DNA of 63,954 nucleotides, the filler included, from Conidiobolus incongruus B7586 (Eukaryota), in the NCBI GenBank assembly GCA_000697335.1. It is 10 parts of 10 records of this genome, joined end to end, with 100 filler letters (N's around TTAATTAATTAA, not from the genome) between each part and the next. Parts side by side here need not be neighbours in the genome. Positions count along the whole stretch, not along the records: positions 13,467 to 21,050 come from JNEM01006715.1; 9 more parts are not named here. One strand, 5' to 3'. A program made the position numbers and the translations under genes. Under the pieces are notes generated by a model, which had not been told where the DNA came from, ran no database searches, and was given only the letters and a program-made list of their open reading frames with translations. Below, in pieces: positions 14,851 through 63,954 of the stretch. How positions within the stretch are numbered: the stretch's first letter is position 1; each line of letters starts with the position of its first letter.

Positions 14851-15660
14851 TTAGGCGTGATTTGCAAATACCGTGGTGGCATACCCATCAACCATGCCCG
14901 ATCCCATGAATTTGTAGTCTCCAAGCATATTTTCCAAGTGAGGTGGTGAGCCATTCCAAGCGTTGACAGCATCATGACTTGTATAAGTTCCAGCAGCTGC
15001 GTTCTCTGCAAGACTGCCAGGCTCAAATCTAAGTTTAATCAAATTGTCGCGTATAGTAGTACCATTAGGACGATCATGTGTCATTTTTTTGATATCAGCT
15101 TGATATTTGGCTTGATCGTAAGCCTCTCGATTGAGAGCAGGACTAAGTTGTAAGGGACTCTTGCCATGCTGAGCACGGATCCTATTAATTTCTTCCAATA
15201 CATCTTCTGGCTTATATCGAGGATCCATAACTGGTGTTTGAGGAGCGCTAGAGCCTGGAGCTGGTGTTTCAGGTTTTTGTTCAGGTTCTGATTCTGGCTC
15301 TGGTTTCGCCTCTGGGACTTCCATTCTGTCCTCTTTCTCTTCTTCGTTTGATTCAGGAGTAGGGGCCTTAGTTTCATCAACTTGAGGAGTAGATTCGGCC
15401 TTAGTGGGAATTTCTTCCTTAATTACGGGTTTGGGTGCTTCCATAGCATCTGCACGTGGTGTAACTGGAGCAGAAGGTGTGGGAGCAGGGATAGCAGCCT
15501 TTCGTTTACGGACACATTTGAGAATTTTAGTAGGAGATGTGTTTGGCTTAGTTTCAGAACCACCGGGAATTTTAACTTGATGATTTTCACCGTTATGAGC
15601 CACTGATGGACCCATTTGAACTAGGATCATTAATAAAGCAACAATATTTTTAGTCAACAT
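14851..15660 (-). CDS. Secreted CAP/SCP (PR-1-like) domain protein with Pro/Glu-rich linker
   Basis: N-terminal signal peptide and P/E/T-rich spacer. C-terminal CAP motifs INRIRAQHGKSPLQLSPALNREA, MTHD, AENAA and WNGSPPHLENML. Confidence 0.9.
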   Translation of the reverse strand: MLTKNIVALLMILVQMGPSVAHNGENHQVKIPGGSETKPNTSPTKILKCVRKRKAAIPAPTPSAPVTPRADAMEAPKPVIKEEIPTKAESTPQVDETKAPTPESNEEEKEDRMEVPEAKPEPESEPEQKPETPAPGSSAPQTPVMDPRYKPEDVLEEINRIRAQHGKSPLQLSPALNREAYDQAKYQADIKKMTHDRPNGTTIRDNLIKLRFEPGSLAENAAAGTYTSHDAVNAWNGSPPHLENMLGDYKFMGSGMVDGYATTVFANHA

Positions 15661-18600: not shown

Positions 18601-19723
18601 TAAACTGAAAACCTCTAATTCATTTGTATTTCAATAAAGTATTCGTAATTGATTGAAAATGACACTATGAAATTTAATGAGTTGAAAATTGAATCACTCA
18701 TTTAACTATGATATTCAAATTATATAAATTGAATACTCTAACTTTAAATATGACACATTTATTTTTAAATATATTTACAAATATTTTATAAAATATGAAT
18801 TGATATATAATTAATGAATTAATTTCTATTATGAATATTTAATCAAAAAACCTTATTAATTAATATATAATTAATACTCAATATAAATTCTAACTTAAAC
18901 CATGAGTATTTAAAAGTTCACAATTATTGAAACAAATTAATATTTAAAGAAAAATAAATTTAACCACTAATAATAAAGCTAATATAATAGGAAATTAATA
19001 CTTATATATGTGCATTATTAAGTTATAAAAATCTACTTCAATAGAAATATATTTAAAATTCTATTGATCAACCATTAAATAATTTGATATAATAAACTGA
19101 AAATTTATTAATTTCATAAATTTTCAAAAAAAAATTTCAAATAATTATAAAAGGTGAATAAATTATTAAACTATACTTAATAAGTAATTGCAATAACATG
19201 TGAACTTATTAGATAGAATTATCTTTGAAAATCAAGGTATTATAATTTGAATAAAATTGATTTAATACCTTCATATCCACTGGTCCTTACACATGATTTG
19301 ATCATTTTCAACTCCACCATATTATAATAAAGTACAAGATGGTCAAAGTAGCATATTACTTTAAGAATTGATTATTATAATAATATTAATTTGTGTATAT
19401 TAATATATACGAAATATAATAATAAAAGTATTTAGTACTTATTAAATGAGGATTATTTAACAGTCAATAATCATTGAGTGAATTTGATGAAAATAGTTGG
19501 TAAATCATATGACAAAGTCATCAATGGAACGGATCTAGTAATGAAATCATAATTAGTATTAAAAGCCAAATCCTATATTAATTGAAGGTCACAGTGAATC
19601 AATTTAATATGTCTAAATTCCCTATTATTTAATACATTTGAAGTATATAAACCATTTAAGCTACTGGAAGTTCAACTATTTCTTATTTTTTTTGTCAACA
19701 TAATACAAAAAAATATTTTAAAA

Positions 19724-20176
19724 ATGGCACAAGTTTTAAGCAATCAAAATAATTATCTTAATCAAATAAATCAAAGGAATACCGAAAAAGCTTCAAATTT
19801 GAAAGAAGGAACTTATGTTTTTATTAAAAACCAGCCATATAAAATTATTTCAATTTATACCACTCAAACGAATTTAATTCAATTCACTTCTATTCATTCC
19901 TTCTCTGGGGAAAAATTAATTGAATGGTTCGAAGGAACTGATGCTTTAGAAGTTCCTGAAGTTTCCTTTAAAGAATACACTTTAGAAGGTATTGAATCGA
20001 ACTACTTGGTCTTAAAAGATGATCGGAGCACTACGAATAATCACATTCCTTTGCCTAAAGGGATAAATGGTGAAAAAATTCAAAATGCACTGAAAACAAA
20101 TAATGGAAACATTATTATTAAAACAGTTAATATTTTGGGTGAAGAAGGTTTTGATTCATTTTATATAAATAACTAA
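19724..20176 (+). CDS. Divergent eIF5A-like protein lacking the hypusine motif
   Basis: Collinear with the neighbouring eIF5A: ASNLKEGTYVFIKNQPYKI ~ [24 protein letters not shown] ~ FTGKK, EVPEVSFKEYTL ~ [17 protein letters not shown] ~ [14 protein letters not shown] is replaced by QTNL. Intact ORF with TATA at ~19643 and AAAATGG start. Confidence 0.85.
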   Translation: MAQVLSNQNNYLNQINQRNTEKASNLKEGTYVFIKNQPYKIISIYTTQTNLIQFTSIHSFSGEKLIEWFEGTDALEVPEVSFKEYTLEGIESNYLVLKDDRSTTNNHIPLPKGINGEKIQNALKTNNGNIIIKTVNILGEEGFDSFYINN

Positions 20177-21050: not shown

Positions 21051-21150
21051 NNNNNNNNNNNNNNNNNNNNNNNNNNNNNNNNNNNNNNNNNNNNTTAATT
21101 AATTAANNNNNNNNNNNNNNNNNNNNNNNNNNNNNNNNNNNNNNNNNNNN
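21051..21150. other. Artificial scaffold gap linker
   Basis: N44-TTAATTAATTAA-N44. Confidence 0.97.
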
Positions 21151-23294: not shown

Positions 23295-23762
23295 TTATTT
23301 AGAGGATTGGCGAACAGATAAAGCGTGTTCTTCACCCATAGCAGAAACAACGGTAACGAGAACATCACCTTCAGCGTTTTCGAAAGCTTCTTCAATTTGT
23401 TGACCAATTTCTCCTTCAGGAAGACGGACATCATCCTTCATATTACCATCACTGTCCATCAAATTCAAGAAACCATCATCAATGTTGATTAAAGTGTATT
23501 CGTTACGACCAACATTGGGGACATCCATGTTGTGAGTGGAGGGAGAAACATCTTCGTACTTCTTACCAGTGAAGATATCGATAGCAACCAAGTTAACCTT
23601 AGCGTGTCCGTGCTTACCAGTCTTGGAGGTGGACATATCAACAATCTTACAGGGACGACCTTTGATAACAACGTGTCCGTTCTTACGTAAAGCGGAACAT
23701 TGCATGGGATAGGTAAGGGAAGCTCCGGAGGAGGCTTGTTCGAAAGTATGATCGTCTTCCAT
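23295..23762 (-). CDS. TIF51: Translation factor eIF5A (copy 1)
   Basis: [12 protein letters not shown] hypusine motif and full-length eIF5A. Start placed at the Met shared with copy 2; an upstream in-frame ATG exists at 23810. Confidence 0.97.
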
Positions 23763-25238: not shown

Positions 25239-25706
25239 TTATTTAGTGGATTGACGAACGGATAAAGCGTGTTCTTCACCCATAGCAGAAACAACGGTAA
25301 CGAGAACATCACCTTCAGCGTTTTCGAAAGCTTCTTCAATTTGTTGACCAATTTCTCCTTCAGGAAGACGGACATCATCCTTCATATTACCATCACTGTC
25401 CATCAAATTCAAGAAACCATCATCAATGTTGATTAAGGTGTATTCGTTACGACCAACATTGGGGACATCCATGTTGTGAGTGGAGGGAGAAACATCTTCG
25501 TACTTCTTACCAGTGAAGATATCGATAGCAACCAAGTTAACCTTAGCGTGTCCGTGCTTACCAGTCTTGGAGGTGGACATATCAACAATCTTACAGGGAC
25601 GACCTTTGATAACAACGTGTCCGTTCTTACGTAAAGCGGAACATTGCATGGGATAGGTAAGGGAAGCTCCGGAGGAGGCTTGTTCGAAAGTATGATCGTC
25701 TTCCAT
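25239..25706 (-). CDS. TIF51: Translation factor eIF5A (copy 2)
   Basis: [12 protein letters not shown] motif; 155 aa, one amino-acid difference from copy 1. Confidence 0.97.
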
Positions 25707-27876: not shown

Positions 27877-30397
27877 ATGACAAAGAATAAATCTAAACAT
27901 ATTGACTTTTATGACAATAGTAGCAATTCAGATCCCGAAATAGAAATTTCTGAAGAACCTCCCCAAAAACAGCAACAGACTCAAGCTAAATATTTACAGC
28001 AACAGAAGCAAAATTTACAACAATTTAGGAAAAATTTGCCTATTTACAGTGGGAGAGGGGAAATCGTAAATTATATTCGCAAGAATGAAGTGACTATTAT
28101 CGTTGGGGAAACAGGGAGTGGTAAAACCACTCAAATTCCTCAATATTTGTATGAAGAAAAGTTTATCTGTGGTAATAGGGTGATTGGTGTGACCCAGCCA
28201 CGTAAGGTTGCTGCGGTATCGTTGGCTGGGAGAGTCGCTCAGGAAGTTGGAACGACTGTGGGTGACGTGGTAGGTTATTCTGTGCGTTTCGATAATTGTT
28301 GTAGTGATAAGACGAGGATCAAATACGTTACGGATGGTATGTTACTCAGGGAAAGTTTAATGGATTCAAATTTCGATCAGTATAGTGTGATTATTTTGGA
28401 CGAAGCTCACGAACGTACATTGAGAACGGATGTTTTGTTGGGTTTGTGCAAAGAAGCTTTGGCAAAGCGTAGAAAGACTAAAAATCCTTTAAAGTTGGTA
28501 GTAATGAGTGCTACTTTGCAAGCTGATAAATTTTCAGATTTCTTTAACAAGTAATTAATTTACGACTTTTATGATTTATCATTAATTCTTGTATCTTTTT
28601 AGTGCTCCTATTTTGTGGGTTGAAGGTAGAACATATCCAGTCAAAATGATGTATACAGTGACGCCATACCCCGATTATTTGGACGCATGTATCTTGACCA
28701 CATTCCAAATTCATTTAACACAACCCATGGGGGATATCCTAGTGTTTTTAACGGGTCAAGAAGAAATTGAATCTTTAGAAAAAGCTATAAAAGAATATAC
28801 TGAAAAACTTCCTTCATCAACTACTAAAGTAATATCATTAGTTTCAATAATATATTATATATTGATCATTTATATAGTTGGTAGTTGCTACACTATTCGC
28901 CAATTTACCATCGAACCAACAGCAAAAAACTTTGACGCCCTTACCCAAAGGTCAACGTAAAGTGATTTTAAGTACGAATATTGCTGAAACTTCCTTAACG
29001 ATTCCCAATGTCAAATACATTATTGATCCTGGATTGGCTAAAGTCAGAGGATTTGATTCTAACCTAGGTAATTTTGAACTTTACTATTGGTTATTGTGAA
29101 TTTATCAATATTTTATAAAGGTATTGAATCTTTACTTGTACAGCCTATTTCTCAAAGTGGTGCTCAACAGAGAGCGGGTAGAGCTGGAAGAGAAGTAATA
29201 CATTTATGCCATTTAATATTATGAATGCTTATTAATAAAATATTAGGCACCCGGTACATGTTACAGATTGTACACTGAAGAAACATTTCAATCTATGGCA
29301 ACTGAAGATATTCCAGAAATTCAAAGGTAAAAAAAATCTATCGACTTAAAGTACTTTGATTAACATATAATATCATCCAATAGATGCAACTTAGCCTTTG
29401 CAGTTTTGACTCTCAAGGCATTTGGAATCAAAGATATCCTAAAATTTCCTTTTATGACGCCACCTCAGCGCAAAAGCCTCATTTTAGCACTCGAGCACCT
29501 CTATTCGCTTAATGCACTTGACAACTCTGGTGAATTAACACAACTTGGTCGAGATATGTCATCATTCCCACTAGAACCTCGATTTGCCAAAATTTTAATC
29601 GAATCAAAGGTAATATCAACTCTAATCATAATTTATTATTAATTATTGACAATGCTTTAGAAATTTAGATGCACCGATCCAGTCCTAACTATTTTATCAT
29701 TACTCTCCGTTGATAATTTATTTTATTCGTCGAGTGAGAATAGGGAACAAGCTCAAGAAGCTAAAAAGAAATTTATTAATACAACTGGTAAATTATATAT
29801 TATTTCTTTATTTAAACTATAACTCTGAATTATATTATTAGGCGATCATATAACCTACCTCAACCTTTATAAAGCTTACAAATCGCACAACGGATCTTCG
29901 GCATGGTGCAAGAAGAATTATATTAATAAGCGATCTATGAACTATGTGGACGAGATTAAAACTCAGTTGGTGAATCATTGTGAACGCCTCGGTATCGATC
30001 CCAAAACTACTACGGACGACAGTCAAACCATTTTGCAATGTATGCTAACTGGTAACTTTATGAATACTGCTCTCTTGCAGCCCGATGGCACTTATAAATC
30101 GGTGGTGGGTAAACAGGTAATTGTATTTTTCAAATTGATCTTTATCATTATATTAATTTTATTTATTCTAATTTATAGAAAGTTTACATTCATCCCATGT
30201 CAACTATCTTTACCAAAAAACCAGAAGCTGTAATGTACAACGAACTGGTAATACATCGTTTACTACTGTTTAATTTATTTCATTAACATTGAATATAGAT
30301 CTTCACGACGAAACACTATATGAGAGGAATCTCAATCATCCTACCTCAATGGATTGTTCAATCAGCACCTCATTATTTGGGGAAGAAATCCAATTGA
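27877..30397 (+). CDS. DHR2: DEAH-box RNA helicase, Dhr2/DHX33-like, multi-exon
   Basis: [41 protein letters not shown] and QRAGRAGRE, plus HA2/OB-like C-terminal exons. About ten short GT-AG introns; stop TGA at 30395-30397. The short N-terminus favours Dhr2/DHX33 over Prp22/Prp16/Prp2. Confidence 0.8.
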
Positions 30398-35011: not shown

Positions 35012-35461
35012 ATGTTGATCTCTAAGCAAAACAGAAAAATCATCTACGAAAACCTTTTCAAGGAAGGTGTTTTGGTTGCCAAAAAGGACTACAACTTGCC
35101 CCGTCACCCCACCCTTAAGGTCTCCAACTTGGAAGTTATCAAGGCTTGCCAATCTTTGAACTCCCGTGGCTACGTCAAGACCCAATTCTCTTGGCAATAC
35201 TACTATTACTCTTTGACCGATGAAGGTATCAACTACTTGAGAGAATACCTCCACCTCCCCGCCGAAATTGTCCCCGCCACTCACAAGAAGGTTACCCGTA
35301 CCTCCGCTCCTCGTGCTGGTGGTCGCGATTGGGATGGTGAACGTGCTCCTCGTGGAGATCGTGAAGATTACCGTGGTGCCAAGAAGGAAGGTGCTGCCGG
35401 TGATTTCCAACCTCAATTCCGTGGTGGAAACAACCGTGCTGCCGCTAACACTGAAGCCTAA
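35012..35461 (+). CDS. RPS10: 40S ribosomal protein S10 (eS10)
   Basis: [55 protein letters not shown]; strong codon bias. Confidence 0.97.
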
Positions 35462-37219: not shown

Positions 37220-37319
37220 NNNNNNNNNNNNNNNNNNNNNNNNNNNNNNNNNNNNNNNNNNNNTTAATTAATTAANNNNNNNNNNNNNNNNNNNNNNNNN
37301 NNNNNNNNNNNNNNNNNNN
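37220..37319. other. Artificial scaffold gap linker
   Basis: N44-TTAATTAATTAA-N44. Confidence 0.97.
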
Positions 37320-37322
37320 TCA

Positions 37323-38625
37323 CTCTGTATTTTTAATAATAGGAATTTTTTGCAATTAAAAATAAATAAACATTTGAATATATGATATATAAAAATAAAT
37401 ATATAATATAAATTTAATAGTTTCTTTTATTATTAATAACTTTTTGCTATATTTTTAGCAAACTTCTAACACCTAAAAAATAGTTCTTTTTATTAAAGAC
37501 TAAAATTTGATATTTTACAAACTAATTAAATTTTCCTGTAGAAATTTTCTTTTCTATAAGCTGGTTTTTTAATTACCTAAAGCAATTATAATCACATAGG
37601 TTATAATCAAAGGAATATACTAGATATAGTAGTTTTTTCCAGTTATTTTTAATTAGAAAGTTTTTTACAGCTTTAGATTTATGTATTTTACAATTATCAT
37701 GTAAAATAATAGGTTTTCTTAAATTATATTAAAAACACCAATTAGAAATACTTTTATTTAAAAAAACAATATATAGTTTATTATTAATTGATTTTCCTTT
37801 AGGAACTAAATAAAAATAGCATATATTATTATAATCTATTACAATAATTAATATTCACTTATTAACAAAATATTTATTTAAAGGGATTTATAAAGAAGGT
37901 TGATTTAACTTAATCTAACATATTGATTTGTGTTTTAGTAAAGGATTATACATAAAGATTTAAAATTCATCAATTGTAATTATTCACTGTAAAAGTTTAA
38001 GCTTCTAGTAATATTTTAATAAGTTTTGTTTAATAATAGCTATTCTAATTTTTTTTAAGTTTTAGTTAAATTATAAGGTATTTATTTTACATTTTTATTT
38101 ATTAATTTTAGTTTAAACTTTAAAATATATAAAATACTTGTAAAACTAATATTAAAGTACTTAGATAATTCTCTAGCTAAAATAAAAAGGTACTTTTCAA
38201 TATATTTTTTCACTTTATTTATAATTGAAAAAGTAACAGTTAAAGTTAATCTTTTAAATTTTAACAGGTTTTAAATAGTTTCTCTTTTAACTTTAAAGTA
38301 ATTTACCTAATAATAAATTGTTAATTTAGATAATATTTTATTATTAAAAGCTACTTATAAATTTTAAATAATTTTAAAGGGTTTAAAGTTAAGTTTTACT
38401 AATACTAAAATAAAAAACTTTTGATGATTACTATTTAGTTTAAGCATAATTAAATTAAATAACCAATTTTAAAAAGTTAATTTTTTAATCAAAAAAACTA
38501 ATATATATATATATATTAAAAATATATAATTTCCTATTAACTTTGTATATATTTATTCATTTCAAATTAATAATATGTTTGAAAAATCAGAAATTAAAAA
38601 ATTTCCTATTATTTCAAATTCAAGG
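37323..38625 (-). mobile_element. Full-length (~1.3 kb) mariner relic (subfamily B)
   Basis: Reverse complement of 21151-22333. Retains ATG, IDES and ILHDNCKIH (D2). Imperfect ~30-bp TIRs at both ends, with TA at 38626. Confidence 0.9.
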
Positions 38626-39601: not shown

Positions 39602-41234
39602 TTAATGGAAAGCCTTGGATTCCAATAACATTTCGTTTTGAGGATCCAAACCGAGGCAAGCACGAAACAAGTTTTCCATAGCCATACGTTGCTTAGCGAG
39701 AGCGTTGACGACGGGGGTATTGGGAGGAACCATGGGGGCCTTAAGCATGTATGAGAGGATGGACAAGACGGAGTGGAAGGGAGCATATTCTTCCATATCT
39801 TCAGTACGATATTGGATACGAGTCATCAATTCGGTGATCATGAATAAGTCAATAATCAAAGGTGAGGCCAACAAAGAATCTTCACAGGTGTTATAAAGAG
39901 AGATGGTGTTCTTACCGTTCATGAAGATTTCACTGACGTATTCATCTAAAGCTCTCTTGGAGTCACCAACAGTGGGGACATACTTGATGACAACGACATG
40001 GTCAGGATGTTCATCCTTGGAGTATAAGATATTGTTAGCTTCAACCATATCGTCAACAACGTTACTCTTGGAGATTTCCTTAGAGCGGAATTGTTGAGGA
40101 GCAGACAAATTCTTACCGTCATTGTTACCCAAGTGGTTGTAACTGGTGATAGCAATGGGCTTAATACCAGCATTGACTAAGAAGTCAACAAGAACAGATT
40201 TGACCTTGGTTTGACCACTCTTGAAATCGTCACCACCAATGTAGACACGGTGACGTTCAGCCAATTCAATGACACCAGGAACAAAGGTGTTTTGAGGGCT
40301 TCCGTTAATGAAAGGAGAGCCTTCCAAAATACTAGCCATGGCGAAGACGGTGGAGGGGGAGACTTCTTCGTGACTGGTCTTGACAGAGTTCAAGAGATTA
40401 TCGGCAGTATCGTTGACACCTTCGATAATGCTAGCAAAACGTTCGGTGTTAGCGGTCCACAAGACAATAACCTTATCCAAACCATGAGTGGCCTTAAAGT
40501 TACGAATGTCTTGACGGATGTGTTCTAAGTGAGCTTGCTTGTCATTGCCGGGAATGACGTTGTCAGCACGTTCGTTTTGGTTGGCAGCAATGAAGTCAGG
40601 ATAGTAGATAGAGGGAAGAGGCTTGAGTTGGCTCATTTCATCCTTCAATTGGCGTTGAAGGTCATAATCCAAAACTTGAGCGCGTTCCATGGCTTCAGCG
40701 ATGTTGGCGCTGTTAATATCCCAACCGCCCAAGACGATATCATTGGGGTGGACCATAGGCAAGATATCTTTGAAGGGGATGAAGACATCCTTTCCGTTTT
40801 CATCAACCCCAAGCTTCAAAGTGGAGGCCATGACGACGGAACCGTAATAGTTGGGGGATTTGATTCCTTCTTTGGTATGCCATTGGACATTGCGACGGTT
40901 AGCGGCAATACTGGCAGTGACGGTGGATCCATTGTTACCACCCCAGCCGACCATCATCAAACTGATCAATTGATTAGAAAAAGAGAATTAAAAGTAATTT
41001 TAACTATGCTTACCCAACTTTGGGAAGTTTGATATCAGTCTTGAAGTGATAAGTAACGTCAGTAGGAGTCACCTTTAATTGGCCATCGGCGGTACGGGAC
41101 ACTTTGGAGTTTCTGTAATGATACTTGGATAAAATGTGCTCATCGGTATATTGGGTAGATTCGGATTCTACACGGAACTTGAGGCTGGTGCTACCTTGAG
41201 CTAAGCTTTCGGAATTTTTATTAAGAGGAGGCAT
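39602..41234 (-). CDS. INO1: myo-inositol-1-phosphate synthase; exons 41234-41014 and 40961-39602
   Basis: [27 protein letters not shown] and [14 protein letters not shown] signatures. Intron 41013-40962 restores the frame (KVG|LMMVG). Confidence 0.97.
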
Positions 41235-43863: not shown

Positions 43864-43935
43864 TGACGCGTGAGAGACTCGAACTCCCAGCCTTCCGCTC
43901 TGGAGGCGGACGCGCTACCATTGCGCCAACACGTC
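43864..43935 (-). tRNA. tRNA-Trp (CCA)
   Basis: GACGTGT TG GCGC AATGGTA GCGC G TCCGC CT-CCA-GA GCGGA AGGCT GGGAG TTCGAGT CTCTC ACGCGTC A; complete cloverleaf, T-tract downstream. Confidence 0.95.
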
Positions 43936-43947
43936 TTAAGATTTTTT

Positions 43948-44504
43948 TGACAATTGTTATCTAATGGTCACCTTTTCTCACTCAAAATCACCGATCATCC
44001 CAATTAAGTCATATAAATAATATTAACCAGTTGTGAATAAGCCTCTAAACCCTTGTTATTACAATCTCTACATGTTTTACAACCTTATTATTGATTCGTC
44101 ATAGCCTACTTATGCCAATACTTTCTACTCAATTCTAGTGGCACTTTTCTCTATTCTACTTTACAAATAAACCTTATTTTTCTACTCAAAACCCACTTCC
44201 GAGCATACTCAAGGAGTCATCTATAGCTTCACTTGAGACATATTCCATTATCCGCTCTACATCTATTCCTACTGATATTCTGTAATCTACTTTCTTAGTA
44301 TGTCAGATTCTCACACTGCCACTGTTGCTGCTGATCTAGTCGCCTTCTTCAACACTTCATTTACCAGTAATCATGGTCAGATGACTAGGGAACTGGCCAT
44401 CCGTAACCTACCTCAGTTTGTAGGCACCATGCTTCATAATTTAGCCTATACAATGGCTATGTCAGTGTTTTCGATGACGCTCAAAGAGCTAATAACCACG
44501 ACAA
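43948..44504 (+). mobile_element. Solo-LTR-like repeat, copy 1, immediately upstream of tRNA-Trp
   Basis: Direct repeat of 48561-49135. TG.../TGT start (43948 or 43955) and ...CGACA(A) end; TATAAAT at ~44012 and AATAAA at 44166. Confidence 0.7.
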
Positions 44505-45149
44505 TTTTTGATTAAAATTTAATTAACTCATTATATTTGAAACCTTAATTTCCTATTTTTTAAATATATAATTTTCAAATTTATTTTGTCACATTTCATT
44601 CATTTAAATAAGTTAAATTTGATTTCAATTAAACAATATATATATTTTTTATAATATATCATAAATGGATTATTTAATCTTTGTAATTATATATTAATAT
44701 CAACTCATAAATATATATAATAATATTTAAAATTCAAAACTATAATTATGTGAACTATCAGTAAAAATTTTATTAAAAAGAATTTAATATTTCAAAATTT
44801 TTAATTTGATTAATGGGTAAATTTAGAATAATTAAGATACCTAAGATTTAATCAAGATCTATTAAGTTTAGAAATTTGATAAATTGTTAATTATTATATT
44901 TACGAAATAAAGTTGAAAAAACTTATATTCAATCTCCAATGTCAATATTCATATTTTTAATTTGTTTTAACCTAATTCTTTTTTAATCTTTCAATTTCAT
45001 ATTTTTATATTATTGATTATTGGGAAATGTCTATAAATTAATTAATTCATAATAATTTTAATATTATAATTTCAACGAATATTAATTATAAATCATTGAT
45101 ATTTATATATTTTGTTGATTGAATGAACACTAAAATACAGTTAATGAAG

Positions 45150-48100
45150 TTATGGCATACCGTTGAAATCTACCGGAATTTCTTTGAACTCTACAGTTGG
45201 TCTATTAGTCAATATCTGAACATTCTTCAATGGACGATCGTTAGGCTGATTCTGGCGTCGCCAATCGGAATAGGTATGCGTAAAGCGAATGGGTTTGGGT
45301 TGGAACACCTCTCCAGTATCTTCTACTGAAGGGTCAGAAGTGTTAGCTGAGGATTTGGTCAAGTGTCCAAAGTGAATATTTTTGAATTGAGCTATTTGGG
45401 GATGCGATTTGCACAGGTCCGGATACTTTTGAATCACATCTATGACCTTTTGAACGCGTCTTTGAACTTGCGCGTCGTTGATGCGTTGTTGGGGTCTCAC
45501 TCCCTGCTTGGCGTCTGTTCCATTGGAATCGTATTTGGCCTGTTCCGCCAGCCATTTTGAGAAGGACTCCCACCTTGCTTGAATAGCCTCCTGCTTTCCC
45601 TTCTCCAATTTGATCTTGCTCAAGGGTTGGAGGAATGCGGAATTCGACTTCAGATTCTCCACTTTGAGTGGCGGCATTTTGAAAGCGCCTTTAATGGATC
45701 CGTTCAAATACTGCTCTTCGTAGTTCTTGACACATTGGTTAAAGTTCTTCTGGAGTGCTTCGTTCTGTAGAGGATTTGATAGAAAGTTAGAGAGTTCCTC
45801 CTTAAACGCTTGAGATGGTATATATGCTTGAGTTGTTTGAAATCCCAAATTTCTCATATTTCTAGAAGCTGCAATCGCCGCCTCTGACGGTATGGTAGGC
45901 ACAGTCGTTTTTGAAGTGAGGTTGTCCTTTCGAAGTGGCTTATCAGGGAGCATCTGTTCGGGCTGAGGATTACAAGTCTTTAATAAAATATCCACAATTT
46001 GTTTCGCTTTTTCGAATTCTATCAAGCAGAATTTGTATACCGATAGACACGAATTAATCCACGAAGCTGGATTGCTTCCCTCTAATTCCGAGATAGTTGG
46101 TTCAGAATTGGAGAAGAAGACGTGGGGAGCGATGTGACCGATCATATTGGACAATTCCTTACGCTCATTCAAAACCGATTCAATCGTTCCTTGAAATAAT
46201 TTGCAATATGAATTCAAACTCATAAAATGTTGGCCAAAATTTGAATTCAAACCACTCATCTGATGCATAAGATTTGAGTAATCCTCGGGAGCCAACACTT
46301 TTTTGAAGACTTCTGTGGAATTCATAAAGCAATTTATAGTAGAATAAAACTGTTTGCTTTGGGTTAATAAGAGTTCGGAATTGGCGTGAATTTTCCTCAA
46401 CTCCACAAGTAGGCATTCGAAGGGTTGGAGATCTAAAGATACGAGGACACCTGGGGGATCCACTTCCAAATCGTTGAGCATTGAAGTGAATGCAGTCTCC
46501 CAATTGTTGCGATTCTCTAAGGCGTTCGCGGTTTGCTTAGTGAATTGGTACTTTTGTTGGACTTTTTCGCCCCAGCTGTTTATCTTGTTCTTGAGGCTGC
46601 GAATGTCGTAACTGTCTTGGATTTTCATTTTGGAGCTCAGGATTTTGAAATTGTCTACGCGTTTTCGAATGAAATCTAATCGATATAAGATCCATTTGTA
46701 AACGAGTGTGTTTTCTGCTGGGTTTGGTAGAATTTGATCTTCAGGTTTGTTCAAGTGCTCTTTAGGTTTGGTAAAAGGGGGTGCAAAATCTATATGGTGA
46801 CACGTTTTCACCTTAGGAAAATCAATCTTATCCAATTCTTTTAACTTATCAGGATTTCTCATAATAATAATGAGAGCATTATGGGGAGCAGGACGATAGG
46901 TAGGATTATAAATTAACGTACGTTCTAAATAATGCGCCATATTCAGACATTTACAATTCAAGATATTGGGCAATGACCTCGCCAAAGGCTTTTGATTTTT
47001 AATAATTCCATAATGTGGTAATTTCTGCAGTACTGGTGATTCCTTGTCGTCTGGAAACTCCTTCTCGTTAAGCGTACCCAGATATTTGTAGATTTCGTTT
47101 AGTTGCTCCTCGCGAGTTCTACCGCGCATAACCCCAATGCCTAGATCCATCTGGAGGAATACGACCGCTAAACTCCAGAGATCGACCTTTTCTGTAAATT
47201 TTTCTACACCCATTAGTATTTCAGGAGCTCTGCACGATGTGGAAGTGGGGGTTTTGTCCAAGTACTTGGTGAATGCTCTCGCTTTAGAGCACATGGCACT
47301 AAATCCTGTAAGTCGAATTCTTCCATCGGTGTTGATTAAAATATTTGAAGCTATAAAATTAAATAATTTAATATATTAAATGATGAAACATTAACATTAA
47401 CTTACGACAAACATTATTATGGATTAGGTTAGTACTATGCAAATATCCCAAAGCTCTCAATATATTACAAATAATCTTTCTCTGATGCGTAAACGATAGC
47501 TCAATGTTTGGATTCATTAAGAGGCCCTGAAGATCGTGGTCATAATAATCCATTTTAATGAACTTTTGAGGCTGTTCTTTTGGTGTTAAAACTATATCTC
47601 ATATTAATCAACTTAAAGTAAATTTTAAATATAATATTTACTCTTATTGGATAAATATCCTCTAGTTTCTATGAGATAATCTTTGAAAAATCTTATTTCA
47701 TCCATATATCTGGAGTAGCCATTCATCTAATCCATATGTTAATATAATGATATTTGAACACATAAATATAATAATAATAATAATACTTCGTCATTAGATT
47801 GAGGTACATATTTAGCTACACACAATTCACCCTTTGGCATTTTCACAACAAATACAGGTCTAAATCAAATTATTAAAACTATGATTCTATCTAGAAATAT
47901 TAAAAAAATACCTATTAGGATCCTGATTCAACACCTTAACCACTGTGCCTTTCATCTGGTTGGTGCACAGCGCCTTCAACTCCTCACCAGCCACCTTGAA
48001 ATTCTTCTGAATGTCATACAAGTAATTGTTAAACATAATATCCCATCGCGGTATAGAAGTTGGAAACGAAGCATCGAACTCCTTCTTTCTGTAGAAGTTG

Positions 48101-48474: not shown

Positions 48475-48547
48475 CACCCAACGTGGGGGTCGAACCCACA
48501 ACCTTGAGATTAAGAGTCTCACGCTCTACCGATTGAGCTAGCCGGGC
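48475..48547 (-). tRNA. tRNA-Lys (CTT)
   Basis: GCCCGGC TA GCTC AATCGGTA GAGC G TGAGA CT-CTT-AA TCTCA AGGTT GTGGG TTCGACC CCCAC GTTGGGT G; complete cloverleaf. Confidence 0.95.
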
Positions 48548-48560
48548 TTGTTAAACATTT

Positions 48561-49135
48561 TTACAATTAAATTGTTTTCTAATTGATACCTTGTCCCACA
48601 CAAAAATCACTACCAAATTACCAATCACTCTAATTAAGTCATATAAATAATCCCAACCAGTTGTGAATAAGGTTCTAACCCCCTCATATCCCATTGTCCA
48701 CATGTCCTTATAGCCATATTATTGATTCGTCATAGCCTACTTATGCCAATATTTTCCACTCAATTCTAGTGGGACTTTTCTCTATTCTACTCTACAAATA
48801 AACCTTATTTTCCTACTCAAAGCCCACTTCCGAGCATACTCAAGGAGCCATCTATAGCTTCACTTGAGACATATACCATTATCCGCTCTACATTTATTTT
48901 TACTGATATTCTGTGATCTGCTTTCTTAGCATGTCAGATTCTTACACTGCCACTGTTGCTGCTGATCTAGTCACCCTCTTCAACACTCCATTTACCAGTA
49001 ATCATGGTTGGATGGCTAAGGAATTGATCATCAGTAACCTACCTCAGTTTGTAGGCACCATGCTTCATAATTTGGCCTATACAATGACTATGTCAGTGTT
49101 TTCGATGACGCTCAAAGAGCTAATAACCGCGACAA
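48561..49135 (+). mobile_element. Solo-LTR-like repeat, copy 2, immediately upstream of tRNA-Lys
   Basis: Direct repeat of 43948-44504 with long identical runs. TGT at 48573, ends GCGACA(A). Confidence 0.7.
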
Positions 49136-49452
49136 ATTTAATTTCAAAATTTTATATTTTTAAAATTGTTAAATTAAAATATACAAATCATTATTTTGAT
49201 AAATCCAACTCTCAAATTTAAAAAATTCAAGTAATGTTTAATTTTCAATTAATTTATCCTTTCATTCTTCTCAAAATTCAAATTATTAAATACATAATTA
49301 TGTAAAATATTTCAAAATTTATTTGTTACAAGAAATTTTATAATTTACCCTCAATATTATTTATATATATCAGTTAAAAAATTATAAATATTTCAATTAA
49401 TTAATAATATATTCATCAATTATAACTTATGAATAGCTATATTTTGATATTA

Positions 49453-49724: not shown

Positions 49725-52530
49725 TATTATATATATATATTATATATAAGAAATATATATTTTCAAACTATATATATATATATATTCAATTTTAATTATT
49801 TTTTTATGAAAATATTTTGATTTTAATTTTTATATTTAAATTTAATTATATTTAAACTCAATTATAGTTATCAAAAGGCTTTTATTTTTGTATCTTTAAA
49901 ACTTAACTATAAATTTTTTAAAATTATCTAAAACTTGCAAATAGCATATAAAGATAATGTTTTATCTAAAACTACCATATATTGCTGGATTTGTGATTTT
50001 AAAGCTAGAAAAAATATTATTTAAAGTTTATCAAAATTTAAATAATTAATTTCTACTACTATTTTTTCACTTAATAATAAATTAAAAAAATATATTAAAA
50101 AATACCTTTTTATTTATATTAAAGAAATATTAAAGCAATTTGATATTAATTATTCAAGCATATTATATTTACTTAAGTTTAAACTTAAATTAATTAATAA
50201 AAATACAAAATGGATATTTTATAATTTAATATCAACTTAAAAGAAAACCAGAGTAATTATAGCTAAACTAAACTTATTAAGGTATAACCAAAAACAAAGG
50301 TTTTTATAGTAAATACTTATAATTAATGAATCTTAAATTTTTTTATATAATCTTTTACTTAAAAATAAAATAAGATATTAGGTTAAACTTATTTAATTCT
50401 TATTATAAATTCCAATAAATAAATATTTTGAATATAAACAAATATTAATTATTGAAATATATTTTAATGATATATGATTTTTTTATTTAATATCTCAAGG
50501 AAAATTGAATAATAGTAAATTATATACACTAACCCACAAAAGTAAGTTATAAAATCAAAAACACCTATATTTTTACTAATAACTTGATTAATATTTAATG
50601 AAATAAACCTAAATTAAATAATTAAAATCTATTATATTTATTAGTTATATATATCATTAAATAATGATATTTAGCTATTAATTGGCTAAAATATAAACCC
50701 TTAAATTTTACCTAAGATGAGTTATAAATTTGTAGGTTTTTGGTGATAAAAAAAAATTAAAACCTAGTGTATCCACCTTTAGCTTTTCTAACTTCTTTAA
50801 GTTTGTGGGGTATAAAATCAATTAACTTCTTACACTAGGAAGGGTTAATCTTGTTCTATGCTTCTTGAACATATTCCTAAAGTTGATCTAAATTTTTTAC
50901 TGGGGGGAAAGCTTTAATAGCTTTTTTTAACTAATCCCAAAGGTGTTTAATTAGATTAAAGTTAGGAGATTGAAGAGGCTACTTCATAACTGTTATCTTG
51001 TTATTTTTAAGCTATTTGGTAGTAGAAGCTATAGTATAGCAAGAGGCATTATCTTGCTGGAAAATAACATCAGATTTGTTTAACCCATATTATTTAATGG
51101 TTTTTTTCAATTTATTGTTTAGAATACTTTGGTATATCTCAACATTAATTCCCCTATTAACTTTACAAAGATACCTTACACCTAAAGACAACATACATCC
51201 CTAAATAATAATTAACCCACTACTATACTTTTGGGTAGAATTAATATGATGGTCACAAAATAGTTCTACATCTTTTCTGAAGCATCTAGCTTTTTTATCA
51301 AATCCACTAAGGTATATTTTTGTTTCATCAAACTAAATAACCTTACTCTAATCAGTTTTAGTTCAACATTAGTGGCAACATTCAAACTCCCACCTAGCTT
51401 TATAGTGGGATTTCTTTAGTTGGGGGTGTTTTTTCTTAAGGTGTGAGTGGTATCCATGCTAATGTAAAACATATATAATAGTATCAATGCTAACTAATAT
51501 TCTTGTATAGTCTCACAGTTCTTGCTATATTTCTACAGTAGTACTACACTTGCTTGTACTAACTAACCTACAGATATACTTCTTATCATGTTCATCTATA
51601 ATTTTAACACACTTAAGTTTAGGTTTAAATGTTTCTTTATTGCTATTCTTAACAGCTTTAGCTATAGTAGACTAGCTAACACTAGTAATTCTAGCAATAT
51701 CATAAGTTAATTTACCTTCTTTATAAAGTTAATTAATGCACAAGTAGATTTTTTTAAAGAGGGATTTAAGTATAATGATACTAATAAAAAAAATTTAGTA
51801 TATCTGTAAAATATTATATAAAATAATAGCAAAGAGAGAAAAAAGATATAGTTATATATTGTTAAATATATCCCCTTATCTCAAAAACCTGTAAATTTAT
51901 AACTCACCTTGGTTAAATATTAAGGGTTAATATTTTTGCTAATAGTTTACTAAATATATCTAAATATATTTATCTATTATTAAATAATATACCTTAATTA
52001 TATATTATAGTTTCAAGTAATCTAATATATACAATTGTTTTAGTTATTAATTAAAATATATATATTTTTGATTTTATGACTCACTTTTGCAGGTTAGTGT
52101 ATTATCTTTTTAAATAAAACAATTTCTAAATGGTATTCTCAATATATATTAAAAACACCTATTATTATTGATAATAATTATAAAATATATAAAGCTAAAG
52201 CTATAAAAGAATTTTTATATAAAAAAATAAAGGTAGTTATTATATCTAATACATTTGCCTTATTATAACCTATATGATGATAATTGTTTTATATAATTAA
52301 AAAAATAGCTTGCAAGAAAAGAATCCTTATAAACAAATTAAATTAGTTTGTAAAAAATCAAATTTCACTTTTTAATAAAAAGAACTATTTTTAAGATATT
52401 AGAAGCTTACTAAAAATATAGAAAAGAGTTATTAATAATAAAGAAGGTTATTAATTTTGTATTATTCATTAATTTTTATATATTATTTATTATATTATTT
52501 GTTTAATTTTTATTTTAATATTGTATTATA
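49725..52530 (+). mobile_element. Mariner relic (subfamily A) interrupted by a nested Tc1 element
   Basis: 49745-50526 plus 52102-52448 together are the reverse complement of 1-1140. Confidence 0.88.
50527..52099 (-). mobile_element. Tc1-like (DD34E) transposon relic with TIRs and TA target duplication; transposase relic ~51773->50757
   Basis: TIRs CACTAACCCACAAAAGTAAGTTATAAAATCAAAAA / TTTTTGATTTTATGACTCACTTTTGCAGGTTAGTG flanked by TA. Translation VI*FDETKI, II*GCM, FQQDNASCYT, *PLQSPNFNLIKHLW and AKGGYTRF* is a decayed Tc1 with D-(34)-E spacing. Confidence 0.93.
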
Positions 52531-54337: not shown

Positions 54338-54862
54338 ATGGCTTCAGCTTTAGCTCGTCAAAATTTTGCTGCCGCCTCTGAAGAAGGGGTTAACCAACAA
54401 ATTAATATGGAATACCGTGCTTCAATGGTATATGCTTCTATGGCTGCTTACTTTGATCGTGATAACGTCTCACTTCCTGGACTTGCCAAGTTCTTCCGCA
54501 AGAGCAGTCATGAAGAACGCGACCATGCTGAAAAATTGATTGATTACTTGAATCAAAGAGGAGGACGAGTTCAAATTCAAACAATTGACGGACCTGATGT
54601 AGAATTCGAGTCAGCTGTTTCTGCTGTCCAACTTGCTCTCCAGTTAGAAAAAGATGTTAATCGCTCCCTTCTTAACCTCTATAAAATCGCTGAACAACAC
54701 AATGATGGTCAAATGTCCCACTTTATTCAAACAGGATATCTTCAAGAGCAAGTAGAAGCTATCAAACAACTTAGCGATTATGTCACTCAGCTCAATCGTG
54801 TTGGCGGTGATGGACTTGGCCTTTACCTTTGGGATCAAAACCTTCTTAAGAGTTTGAACTGA
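54338..54862 (+). CDS. Ferritin (H-type ferroxidase centre), variant three-fold channel
   Basis: RQNF, QINMEYRASMVY, SHEERDHAEKL, NQRGGRV, LEKDVN and EQVEAI. Confidence 0.96.
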   Translation: MASALARQNFAAASEEGVNQQINMEYRASMVYASMAAYFDRDNVSLPGLAKFFRKSSHEERDHAEKLIDYLNQRGGRVQIQTIDGPDVEFESAVSAVQLALQLEKDVNRSLLNLYKIAEQHNDGQMSHFIQTGYLQEQVEAIKQLSDYVTQLNRVGGDGLGLYLWDQNLLKSLN

Positions 54863-57302: not shown

Positions 57303-57827
57303 ATGTCTGCTGGATTAGCTCGTCAAAACTTCTCCTCTGCCTCTGAAGAAGGTATCAATCAACAAATCAACATGGAATACCGTGCTTCAATGGTATATGC
57401 TTCTATGTCTGCTTTCTTTGCCCGTGATAACATTGCTCTCCCTGGTCTTGCCAAATTCTTCCGCAAGAGCAGCCACGAAGAAAGAGAGCACGCCGAAAAA
57501 TTGACTGATTACTTGAACCAAAGAGGTGGTCGTGTACAATTACAAACTGTTGATGGACCTCAAGTCGAATTCGACTCTGCCGTTGCTGCTGTTCAACTCG
57601 CCCTCCAACTTGAAAAGGATGTCAACAAGTCTTTATTGAATCTCCACAAGATTGCTGATGAACATAACGATCCCCAAATGTGCGACTTCATTGAATCTGA
57701 ATTCTTAAATGAACAAGTTGAAGGTATCAACCAATTAGCCAACTACGTCACACAACTCAACCGTGTTGGTGGTGATGGTCTTGGTCTCTACCTCTGGGAC
57801 CAAAATTTACTCAACAGCTTGAACTAG
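57303..57827 (+). CDS. Ferritin (canonical H-type)
   Basis: All ferroxidase ligands plus canonical LLNLH and DPQMCDFIESEFLNEQVE; strong codon bias. Confidence 0.97.
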   Translation: MSAGLARQNFSSASEEGINQQINMEYRASMVYASMSAFFARDNIALPGLAKFFRKSSHEEREHAEKLTDYLNQRGGRVQLQTVDGPQVEFDSAVAAVQLALQLEKDVNKSLLNLHKIADEHNDPQMCDFIESEFLNEQVEGINQLANYVTQLNRVGGDGLGLYLWDQNLLNSLN

Positions 57828-60285: not shown

Positions 60286-60342
60286 TAATTAATTAAAAAA
60301 AATAATTTTATTAAATAATTATATTTCAAAAAATATATTATA

Positions 60343-61924
60343 TATTAACTTGCAAAAGTAAATTATAAAATCAAAAACACTTATATTTTTACTAATAACT
60401 TCATTAATATTTAATAAAATAAACCTAAATTAAATAATTAAAATCTATAATATTTATTAATAATATATATTAATAATATATATTATTGAATGATGATATT
60501 TAGTTATTAATTAACTAATTATAAACCATTAAATCTTATTTAAGGTGAGTTATTAATTTATAGGTTTTTAGTGATAAAAAAATTAAAACCTAGTATATCT
60601 ACCTTTAGCTTTTTTAACTTCTTTAAATTTGTGGGGTATAGAATCAACTAACTTTTTATACTAAAAAAGGTTAATCTTGTTTTATGTTTCTTAAACATAT
60701 TTTTAAAACTAATTTAAATTTTTTGCTAAAAGGAAAGCTTTAATAGCCTTTTTTAACTGATCCTAAAAATATTTAATTAAGTTAAAATTAAAAGATTAAA
60801 GAAGCTATTTTATAACTAATATCTTACTATTTTTAAGCTATTTGGTAGTAAAAGCTATAATATAGCAAAAGGCATTATCTTATTAGATAATAATATTAAA
60901 TTTGTTTAACCTATATTATTCAATGTTTTTTTTCAATTTATTATTTAGAATACTTTAGTATATTTCAATATTAATTCCCCTATTAACTTTACAAAGATAC
61001 CTTATATTTAAAAATAATATATATTCTTAAATAATAATTAACCTGCTATAATACTTTTAGGTAAAATTAACATAATAGTCATAAAGTAATTTTATATCTT
61101 TTTTATAGTATTTAACTTTTTTATTAAATTTACTAAAATATATTTTTAATTTATTAAACTAAATAACTTTATTTTAATTAATTTTAATTTAATATTAATA
61201 ATAATATTTAAACTTGCATCTAACTTTATAATTGGATTTCTTTAATTGGGGGTGTTTTTTCTTAAGAAATAAGTGGTATCTATGTTAATATAAAGTACAT
61301 ATAATAGTATTAGTGCTAATTAATATTCTTATATAGATTTATAGTTCCTGTTATATTTTATAATAGTATTATACTTATTTATATTAATCAACCTATAGAT
61401 ATACTTCTTATTATATTTATCAATAATTTTAACACACTTAAGTTTAAATTTAAATGTGTTTTTATTGCTATTCTTAATAGTTTTAACTATATTAGATTAG
61501 TTAACAATAATAATTCTAATAATATCATAAGTTGATTTATATTTTTTATTAAGTTAATTGATATACAAGTGGATTTCTTTAGAGAGGGATTTAAGTATAA
61601 TGATATTAATAAAAAAAATTTAATATATCTATAAAATATTATATAAAATAATAACAAAGAAAGAAAAAAGATATGGTTATATATTGTTAAATATATCCCT
61701 TTATCTTAAATACTTCCAAATTTATAACTTATTTTAATTAAATATTAAAGGTTAATATTTTTGCTAATAACTTATTAAATATATTGAAATATATTTATTT
61801 ATTATCAAATAATATATCTTAATTATATATTATAGTTTTAAATAATTTAATATATACAATTGTTTTAGTTATTAATTAAAATATATATATATATATTTGA
61901 TTTTATAATTTATTTTTACAGGTT
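60343..61924 (-). mobile_element. Tc1-like relic, copy 2 (more mutated; right TIR clipped by gap)
   Basis: Collinear with 50527-52099 throughout, differing mostly by C>T/G>A. Confidence 0.9.
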
Positions 61925-62024
61925 NNNNNNNNNNNNNNNNNNNNNNNNNNNNNNNNNNNNNNNNNNNNTTAATTAATTAANNNNNNNNNNNNNNNNNNNN
62001 NNNNNNNNNNNNNNNNNNNNNNNN
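61925..62024. other. Artificial scaffold gap linker
   Basis: N44-TTAATTAATTAA-N44. Confidence 0.97.
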
Positions 62025-62152
62025 TATATAATTTAAATATTTAAAAATTTTAAATAATATTTAAATATTAAATATATATTTTAAGTATAATATTTAATAT
62101 ATTATTATAATAAAAAAAATAAGTTATTATAAAAATAAAATATATTATTATA

Positions 62153-63724
62153 TACTTACCTATAAAAGTAAGTTATAAAATCAAAAACAATTATATTTTT
62201 ACTAATAACTTGATTAATAATTAATAAAATAAACTTAAATTAAATAATTAAAATCTATTATATTTATTAATAATATATATCATTATATAATGATATTTAA
62301 CTATTAATTGGTTAAAATATAAACATTTAAATTTTACCTAAGATAAGTTATAAATTTATAGGTTTTTAGTGATAAAAAAAATTAAAACTTAATGTATCTA
62401 CCTTTAACTTTTCTAACATCTTTAAGTTTGTGGGGTATAAAATCAACTAACTTTTTACACTAAGAAAAATTATTCTTATTCTATACTTCTTAAACATATT
62501 TTTAAAATTAATCTAAATTTTTTGTTAGGGGAAAAACTTTAATAGCTTTTTTTAACTAATCCTAAAGGTGTTTAATTAGGTTAAGGTTAAGAAATTAAAA
62601 AAACCACTTCATAACTATTATCTTGTTATTTTTAAACTATTTGGTAGTAAAAGTTATAGTATAATAAAAGGTATTATCTTATTAAAAAATAATATTAGAT
62701 TTGTTTAACCTATATTATTCAATAGTTTTTTTTAATTCATTATTTAAAATATTTTAGTAAATTTTAGTATTAATTCCTTTATTAACTTTATAAAGATACT
62801 TTATACTTAAAAACAATATATATCCTTAAACAATAATTAACCTACTATTATACTTTTAGGTAAAATTAACATGATAGTTATAAAGTAATTTTATATCTTT
62901 TCTAAAGCATTTAACTTTTTTATTAAATTTACTAAAGTATATTTTTGTTTCATTAGATTAAATAACATTATTCTAATTAGTTTTAATTTAATATTAGTAG
63001 TGATATTTAAACTCCTACCTAATTTTATAATAGGATTTTTTTAGTTAAGGGTGTTTTTTCTTAAAGTGTAAGTAATATCTATACTAATATAAAATATATA
63101 TAATAATATTAGTGTTAACTAATATTTTTATATAGTCTTATAGTTCCTGTTATATTTCTACAATAGTATTATATTTGCTTATATTAACTAACTTATATAT
63201 ATACTTCTTATTATATTCATTTATAATCCTAGCATATTTAAGTTTAAGTTTAATTATGTTTTTATTGTTATTTTTAACAACTTTAGCTATAATAAACTAG
63301 CTAACACTAGTAATTCTAACAATATTATAAGTTGATTTACCTTTTTTATAAAGTTAATTGATACACAAGTAGATTTTTTTAAAGAGGGAATTAAATATAA
63401 TGATACTAATAAAAAAAATTTTATATATCTATAAAATATTATATAAAATAATAGCAAAGAAAGAAAAAAGATATGGTTATATATTGTTAAATATATCCTT
63501 TTATCTTAAAAACCTGTAAATTTATAACTTATCTTAGTTAAATATTAAAGGTTAATATTTTTACTAATAATTTACTAAATATATCTAAATATATTTATTT
63601 ATAATCAAATAATATACTTTAATTATATATTATAACTTTAAGTAAATTAATTTATACAATTGTTTTAATTATTAATTAAAATATATATATGTTTGATTTT
63701 ATAACTTATTTTTGCAAGTTAGTG
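62153..63724 (-). mobile_element. Tc1-like relic, copy 3, full length
   Basis: TA + TACTTACCTATAAAAGTAAGTTATAAAATC ... TTTTGCAAGTTAGTG + TA; collinear with 50527-52099. Confidence 0.9.
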
Positions 63725-63954
63725 TATAATATTAACAATATAAAAATATAATTACAAAATTAAATATTATTTCATTAATAAATATATTAACCCTAATATA
63801 ATACAATTTATATTAGGTAATATTAAATTACTATAATATTTATAAAATATAATTTTAATCTTTTAAAATAATATAAAAGATTAAAAATAATTAATATTTA
63901 AAAAAAAAGTCTAATTATTAGAATAATTAAAATCTTATTTATTTTATTAATTTT

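Follow-up and report, generated by a model that had tools for sequence, protein, structure and literature searches.

The window analysed here, a stretch of 63,954 nucleotides from Conidiobolus incongruus B7586 with a GC content of 24%, encodes an intact paralog of eIF5A from which the hypusine lysine and four neighbouring residues are missing. An ortholog with the same deletion is present in C. coronatus, and sequence comparisons suggest that the gene is maintained and stems from a local eIF5A duplication. Its product is tentatively regarded as an off-ribosome, protein-binding two-domain module, a role that we consider plausible, though far from assured. The following features are relevant:

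19644..19651, + strand: TATATAAA, a weak candidate TATA box 72 bases upstream of the ATG, from the sequence
19724..20176, + strand: intact 150-aa open reading frame of the hypusine-less eIF5A paralog (P0001), from its frame, Pfam and BLASTP matches and an ortholog with 57% identity
19724..19783, + strand: N-terminal 20 residues, N/Q-rich and predicted to be disordered (pLDDT <50 for residues 1-15)
19778..19954, + strand: domain I, SH3/KOW-like, residues 19-77, from Pfam, the fold model and charge comparison
19832..19897, + strand: β3-β4 hairpin (residues 37-58), in which a 4-residue turn takes the place of the hypusine loop, from alignment and fold model
19961..20167, + strand: domain II, OB fold, residues 80-148, with a lineage-specific one-residue insertion, from Pfam and the fold model
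21051..21150, no strand: artificial linker that separates the paralog from the canonical copies and consists of 44 N, 12 bases with stops in six frames, and 44 N; each of the window's 9 gaps has the same sequence
23295..23762, - strand: canonical eIF5A copy 1, 155 aa, or 16 aa more if translation began at an upstream in-frame ATG at 23810
25239..25706, - strand: canonical eIF5A copy 2, 155 aa, with the full hypusine motif; 4 coding bases differ from copy 1

The paralog gene comprises 150 codons without an intron, its product ends in YINN, and shuffling the bases of the ORF 5000 times yielded an open frame of 150 codons in no case. BLASTP alignment with canonical copy 2 yields 37 identities in 125 positions (30%, 5 gaps, E 4e-20), which bears out the intact, eIF5A-related frame recognized in the initial annotation. 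The alignment had been described there as extending from end to end; this holds for residues 22-141, but not for the first ~20 residues. All five gap positions form one five-residue gap between paralog codons 50 and 51, which removes K50-H51-G52-H53-A54 of the canonical protein, and the earlier observation that about five residues including the modifiable lysine are missing from the hypusine loop is thereby confirmed. Since the paralog sequence contains no lysine between K40 and K64, the loss of this residue is independent of gap placement.

A search of PDB sequences with the paralog returned 24 matches at E<=1, all of them to a/eIF5A (best E 3e-13) and none to HEX-1 chains, and the four alignments displayed show the identical gap. 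Both eIF5A domains are matched in Pfam below threshold, PF21485 with 22.9 bits (cut-off 27.1) and PF01287 with 23.3 bits (cut-off 24.2). For the equivalog model TIGR00037, with a cut-off of 75.45 bits, the paralog scores 32.1 and its orthologs 22.0 and 26.7 vs 173.8 for the canonical copy. An assignment to the putative transcriptional regulator PRK03975 (NCBIfam) was discarded at 15.6 bits vs a cut-off of 122. Contigs of the probable source sample show 0 differences from the ORF, one of them running across the deletion point, which does not constitute independent evidence; an assembly artefact as the cause of the deletion is ruled out by the identical deletion in C. coronatus. Three sequencing runs with the same species label contained hardly any of the sequence words, and two of them gave no coverage, results that bear neither on expression nor on absence. 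An exact look-up of three proteins of the window in the protein collection retrieved none of them.

The AlphaFold2 model of the paralog, calculated from an alignment of 30 rows of which 7 are canonical eIF5As, consists of an SH3 and an OB domain (pLDDT 87.5, pTM 0.72). Strands at residues 37-46 and 51-58 are joined by the 4-residue turn, and residues 1-15 are disordered. In structural comparisons with Foldseek/VIA-align, eIF5A is the top match (Z 16.2, rmsd 3.3, 134 aligned, 28%), and HEX-1 (1khi) ranks below it (Z 12.7, rmsd 4.8, 132 aligned, 17%). The Atlas model of the C. coronatus protein matches clusters of eIF5A, aIF5A, and EF-P with TM values of 0.50-0.69, and feature searches lead to eIF5A families at 0.93-0.94. 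The eIF5A fold, for which a profile and structure comparison had been proposed, was thus recovered by both approaches. With eIF5A (TIGR00037; PF21485 and PF01287), the paralog has in common the SH3 and OB domains, the size, about 30% identity, and 17 invariant positions. Unlike eIF5A, it lacks the hypusine lysine and its four neighbours, has changed at 58 positions that are invariant in canonical fungal eIF5A, and has lost the charge pattern.

The N-terminus had been regarded as new and N/Q-rich. It does contain 10 N or Q among its first 20 residues, but it replaces a canonical N-terminal extension of about equal length instead of being an addition, the orthologs have 6-7 of 20, and stretches with 8-15 of 20 are found somewhere in 5 of 11 other ORFs of the window that were checked. 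The first four residues are the same as in the orthologs, and 8 of the 20 are conserved between species; the net charge of this segment is +1 vs -4 in canonical eIF5A. A prion-like N/Q domain was rejected because the stretch is only 20 residues long and poorly conserved and because N/Q stretches are common in this genome. As for the TATA box claimed earlier, TATATAAA is indeed present at 19644-19651, but it is a weak indication, as the same element is found at -120 to -30 of 24 out of 481 ATGs in AT-rich context; TATA[AT]A[AT] lies near 192 of these 481. Codon use of the paralog (CAI 0.40, GC3 0.21, with flanks at 0.14-0.19) resembles that of an ordinary gene and would argue against a very abundant protein. 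The canonical copies have a CAI of 0.84-0.85 and a GC3 of 0.40, copy 2 being itself a member of the CAI reference set. Elsewhere in the window, CAI is 0.29-0.35 for five ordinary ORFs, 0.50 for ferritin 1, and 0.70-0.85 for the reference genes, for which the value is circular.

Maintenance of the gene is indicated by its orthologs. An HMMER search of 1.84 billion representatives returned 84 matches at E<=0.001, among which P0124 stands apart with 57% identity over residues 1-149 and E 4e-43, the runner-up having E 3e-14. The 90% cluster of P0124 has two members with 93% identity to each other, the second being KXN67584.1 (CONCODRAFT_80075, 'hypothetical protein') from C. coronatus NRRL 28638. 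Start, length, and loop deletion are common to the paralog, P0124, and KXN67584.1, the ends are nearly alike (INN vs VIN in the orthologs), and the three proteins form a clade with 100/99 support. The ortholog search suggested in the initial annotation has thus led to an intact counterpart with the matching deletion. In a second search with the alignment of the three proteins, 1 of 323 candidates passed, which was the known ortholog; a word-indexed search with the paralog by itself had let through 0 of 9 candidates, a false negative in view of this ortholog. A pattern scan of metagenomes gave 349 matches with no relative of the paralog among them; 80 of 480 canonical eIF5A loci were kept (best identity 78%), and none of these was accompanied by a second eIF5A-like gene elsewhere.

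Neutral divergence was simulated by AT-biased substitution up to 57% protein identity in 2000 runs. Neither lineage acquired a stop in the frame in 1 of these runs (mean 7.4 stops), a figure that is conservative with respect to the omission of indels and biased anti-conservatively by the ascertainment of both sequences as open frames. Because a neutral open frame is this rare, the paralog can be regarded as maintained, and the preservation of its frame despite heavy divergence, as noted before, is substantiated by this result and by the same start in all three proteins. Substitutions are also more conservative than in the neutral case, with a mean BLOSUM62 score of -0.05 vs -0.60 +/- 0.23, and 15 of 2000 runs match the observed value. 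From these sequence-based simulations, purifying selection is supported, and we conclude that the gene is maintained yet fast-evolving. A special constraint on the new hairpin was considered and dismissed. Between species, 9 of 10 hairpin residues are identical, and the clustering of conserved positions is not significant vs shuffled positions (p 0.80, 0.88, and 0.36 for windows of 10, 20, and 29).

The two canonical copies, whose best named matches are from fungi, are located 3.1 and 5.1 kb from the paralog on the opposite strand. These distances are counted across the artificial linker at 21051-21150, so that the earlier statement that the linkage crosses a scaffold gap is correct. As all 9 gaps of the window consist of the same fixed linker of 100 bases (for example 1615-1714, 21051-21150, and 37220-37319), the gap size is not given and the order rests on scaffolding; it appears unlikely that two pieces with eIF5A genes came to lie side by side across the linker by chance. 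The canonical copies are arranged in tandem, and their flanks are far more diverged than the coding sequences with their 4 base differences. This suggests gene conversion, a recent duplication of the coding parts, or a collapsed assembly.

A local origin is indicated by a one-residue insertion in domain II. A proline and a glycine are spaced by 28 in the paralog, its two orthologs, and the two canonical copies. Among 120 other top canonical eIF5A matches, this spacing is 27 in 117 and 28 in 2, with 1 not scored; the two proteins with a spacing of 28 are P0004 (90% identical) and a 214-aa entry. The shared insertion points to a duplication of the lineage's own eIF5A that is independent of HEX-1, and such an origin is the most likely one as judged from sequence. 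In the trees, the paralog clade is unplaced, with a very long stem of 2-3 or more changes per column. A test on 20 rows does not reject a clade of the paralog with the canonical eIF5A of the window (p-AU 0.45), and a position beside the loop-less protein of Orbilia was disregarded as a long-branch join.

The hairpin of HEX-1 is likewise shortened and lacks the lysine. HEX-1, or HexA, the Woronin-body core protein of Pezizomycotina (PDB 1khi), is also an eIF5A duplicate that has kept the fold and taken on another role; excerpts of PMC6371581, PMC7762394, PMC7559983, and PMC3713238 describe it as an eIF5A duplicate with a PTS1 and the capacity for self-assembly. The PTS1 is given in the part of PMC7559983 consulted as a C-terminal S/A-R/S-L motif. 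The paralog, by contrast, ends in INN and its orthologs in VIN, none of them with a PTS1, and it differs from HEX-1 further in its identity of 14-17%, in belonging to a different fungal lineage, and in the insertion of its own lineage. The earlier view that a protein ending in YINN without a PTS1 is not HEX-1 thus proved right, and identity with HEX-1 or orthology to hex-1 is ruled out by the missing PTS1 and the low identity; orthology was judged from the 14-17% identity in structural alignments, HEX-1 having been left out of the trees. Peroxisomal targeting was rejected as well, as neither a PTS1 nor a PTS2-like motif occurs in the paralog. A separate repurposing of the eIF5A fold, as inferred in the initial annotation, is therefore most likely, in view of the shared lineage insertion and the distance to HEX-1.

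Without its lysine, eIF5A can neither be modified by deoxyhypusine synthase nor reach the P-site tRNA at its CCA end. The missing lysine means that the paralog has no elongation activity of the eIF5A type. The remaining sequence also departs from the canonical charge pattern. Domain I has a net charge of -2 in the paralog and -1 in the orthologs vs +4 to +6 in all 21 canonical fungal rows, and -2/-1 vs +1 to +3 when the loop is excluded. Domain II has -2/-3 vs -9 to -13 in 21 canonical rows. On the yeast ribosome, eIF5A domain I meets 25S rRNA via basic residues of the β3-β4 loop, Arg27 touches the P-tRNA, hypusine gets to the CCA end, and the contacts with uL1 and eL42 are made by domain II and the N-terminal extension, as stated in excerpts of PMC4770232. 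According to a section of PMC8705083, the Lys50 loop is the hypusine site and the role of non-hypusinated eIF5A is still open. Basic or histidine residues are gone in all three proteins at K27, R36, K47, K50, H51, H53, K55, and K67, and they survive at R26 (as K), K34, K39, and K68, which includes the equivalent of the P-tRNA-contacting Arg27. Judged from these positions, binding of the paralog to the ribosomal E site is probably weak. At six conserved polar positions, the three proteins share the same hydrophobic residue (Y31, Y45, L51, I66, F69, and F82); these residues are presumed to be exposed, and 4 hydrophobic-to-polar swaps offset them. Domain I is conserved between species at 39 of 58 positions and domain II, the less conserved half, at 38 of 71.

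These features are consistent with a maintained, lysine-less, off-ribosome module derived from the local duplication. The canonical copies would have kept the elongation job and would thereby have freed the duplicate, in which the ribosome-contact charges would then have decayed. The six hydrophobic residues would form a new interface on a re-surfaced domain I for a protein partner, and expression would be modest, perhaps stage-specific. Against this reading stand the four surviving basic positions and the fact that six polar-to-hydrophobic swaps are within the usual range for diverged proteins lacking the loop, 19 others of which have 2-8.

The surviving basic positions and the retention of both domains and the overall size would also fit a ribosome E-site decoy or dormancy factor that docks on the L1 stalk and competes with eIF5A or marks ribosomes that are idle, resting spores being one example. 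Such a use has precedents in the eIF5A-like domain of Nmd3, which sits in the E site and brings about closure of the L1 stalk (PMC6393466, in part), and in PDB entries that are titled as non-modified eIF5A on 80S (5dc3) and eIF5A on dormant ribosomes (8y0w, 9rvu); recurrent loss of one loop in unrelated lineages would suit a single reusable function. Nmd3 resembles the paralog as an eIF5A-shaped module in non-elongation use, as far as described in the same excerpt of PMC6393466, but it is a large multidomain biogenesis factor, whereas the paralog stands alone with 150 aa, a length shared by its orthologs, is not part of a multidomain Nmd3, and has neutralised ribosome-facing charges. Nmd3 was absent among the 50 structural matches listed, which excludes nothing. 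The basic charge of domain I, the acidic charge of domain II, and the acidic N-terminal extension have all been neutralised, and a stoichiometric ribosome factor would be expected to be abundant, at odds with codon indices (CAI and GC3) that lie well below those of the canonical copies. A decoy is therefore considered unlikely. Binding of single-stranded RNA or DNA by the OB domain off the ribosome is very improbable. The OB fold is retained, domain II is far less acidic than that of eIF5A, and aromatic residues have risen from 7 to 10-15; yet the whole protein is acidic (pI 5.2, net charge -3/-4), the basic face of domain I is lost, and conservation is lower in domain II than in domain I. The RNA binder or decoy envisaged in the initial annotation is accordingly not supported, given the neutralisation of both domains.

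The structural polymer that was also envisaged there finds no support in view of the ordinary codon use, which is unlike that of an abundant protein, and the missing PTS1/PTS2. Self-assembly into a crystal or filament is known from HEX-1 as an eIF5A duplicate (excerpts of PMC7762394 and PMC6371581, both citing Yuan et al.), the fold is shared with HEX-1, and the new conserved hydrophobic residues could serve as self-contacts. Polymer formation is nevertheless improbable: a PTS1 end is found in 0 of 21 proteins with a 4-6 residue deletion, the identity to HEX-1 is below that to eIF5A, Woronin bodies are described as specific for Pezizomycotina (PMC7559983, as far as excerpted), and the N/Q stretch is both short and poorly conserved. 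It is also rather improbable that the paralog is a decaying or weakly constrained duplicate, barely expressed and drifting towards a pseudogene after loss of the loop. Its evolution is very fast, with 57% identity between the species and 93% within the C. coronatus cluster besides the long stem, its codons have drifted towards AT, a third lineage was found neither in the HMMER search nor in the alignment-based second search, and most of the other loop-less clusters examined have 1-3 members, which fits short-lived duplicates. Against decay, the frame is intact in three sequences that begin at the same point and end almost alike, a neutral open frame is rare, substitutions are conservative, and the predicted fold is confident.

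The off-ribosome module has to be seen against the occurrence of similar deletions elsewhere. Among the 84 HMMER matches, 21 have a 4-6 residue deletion of the loop (the ortholog and 20 others), 9 lack 1-3 residues, 8 have a full-length loop without GK[HG]G, 41 have the motif, and 5 were unscored, counts that are not a frequency, as a loop-less query and 50% clustering favour diverged proteins. The source species was looked up for 15 of the 21 loop-deleted proteins, which include:

KAF9103106.1, fungus: Mortierella sp. AM989
KAL9550021.1, fungus: Mucor bainieri
GFF32888.1, fungus: Aspergillus udagawae
KAK6526514.1, fungus: Orbilia ellipsospora
ODO09498.1, fungus: Cryptococcus amylolentus
KAK7687539.1, fungus: Cerrena zonata
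KAF7997707.1, arthropod: Aphidius gifuensis (wasp)
KAI1286637.1, arthropod: Halotydeus destructor (mite)

These proteins have in common with the paralog the lack of 4-6 residues in the same hairpin, the missing PTS1, and strong divergence. Unlike P0124 and KXN67584.1, they are not orthologs of the paralog; most of them keep an acidic domain II, and several are annotated as plain eIF5A. The equivalog cut-off of TIGR00037 is passed by 5 of 6 other loop-shortened proteins scored, and such annotations and scores hide loop-less copies. A single clade of 10 loop-less rows vs 15 canonical rows, with the loop columns removed, was rejected with a p-AU of 0.035, a moderate value in view of long branches and of a larger tree seen beforehand. 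The loop deletions have thus apparently arisen by repeated loss, and some of the other entries may be pseudogenes or faulty or mis-spliced gene models. A search of the open-licence literature gave no account of the paralog gene, of Conidiobolus eIF5A, or of loop-deleted eIF5A paralogs.

As loop-less copies occur in many fungi and some arthropods, the paralog is an instance of a recurring pattern rather than a second singular event beside HEX-1. eIF5A is regarded as a protein that hardly varies, and the example usually given of a duplicate with a changed job is HEX-1. It is possible, though somewhat less likely than not, that eIF5A is a repeatedly recycled scaffold which many fungal and arthropod lineages have each duplicated on their own, trimmed at the loop to a tight turn, and kept for a non-elongation role; the paralog would be a member that is conserved yet far diverged and has a binding surface of its own, and HEX-1 would be the lone studied member of an overlooked class. 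An independent, maintained lysine-less duplicate together with parallel deletions in at least 8 named species suggests that this route has been taken often.

Two further cases were observed. P0125, from a 1206-base Logan contig, is 63% identical to the canonical eIF5A of the window, has the lineage insertion and a 3-residue loop deletion, and looks like a further, younger loop loss in the broad lineage or an intermediate state. In Halotydeus destructor, at least two loop-shortened eIF5A-like proteins, P0129 (KAI1286630.1) and P0163 (KAI1286637.1), are present on a contig of equal length, and one of the two contains three IF5A-like_N stretches in 403 aa, possibly reflecting an expanded family.

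The remainder of the window contains ordinary genes as well as repeats. Ribosomal protein S10 (35012-35461), myo-inositol-1-phosphate synthase (39602-40957), and an exon of a DEAH-type helicase (27877-28554) are encoded, and a 714-aa ORF at 45150-47294 contains part of a diverged protein kinase domain that scores below the Pfam cut-off and is followed by a long stretch without assignment. A CAP-family protein (PF00188), which starts like a signal peptide and has a linker rich in Pro/Glu, is encoded at 14851-15660; a second copy in the sample contigs is about 89% identical over 316 bases. Two ferritin genes are arranged in tandem (54338-54862 and 57303-57827), with 78% identical DNA and codon adaptation of 0.50 vs 0.70. 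The genes for tRNA-Trp(CCA) and tRNA-Lys(CTT), at 43864-44523 and 48475-49155 on the - strand, each have a 549-base repeat on the upstream side; the two repeats are 89% alike and possibly represent a tRNA-gene-associated mobile element. AT-rich dispersed repeats with copies of 72-91% identity and up to 1.7 kb are found at 5-1204, 37322-38610, 49726-52514, 60294-63733, and other contig ends. They lie at most linker borders and are probably the cause of the assembly breaks.
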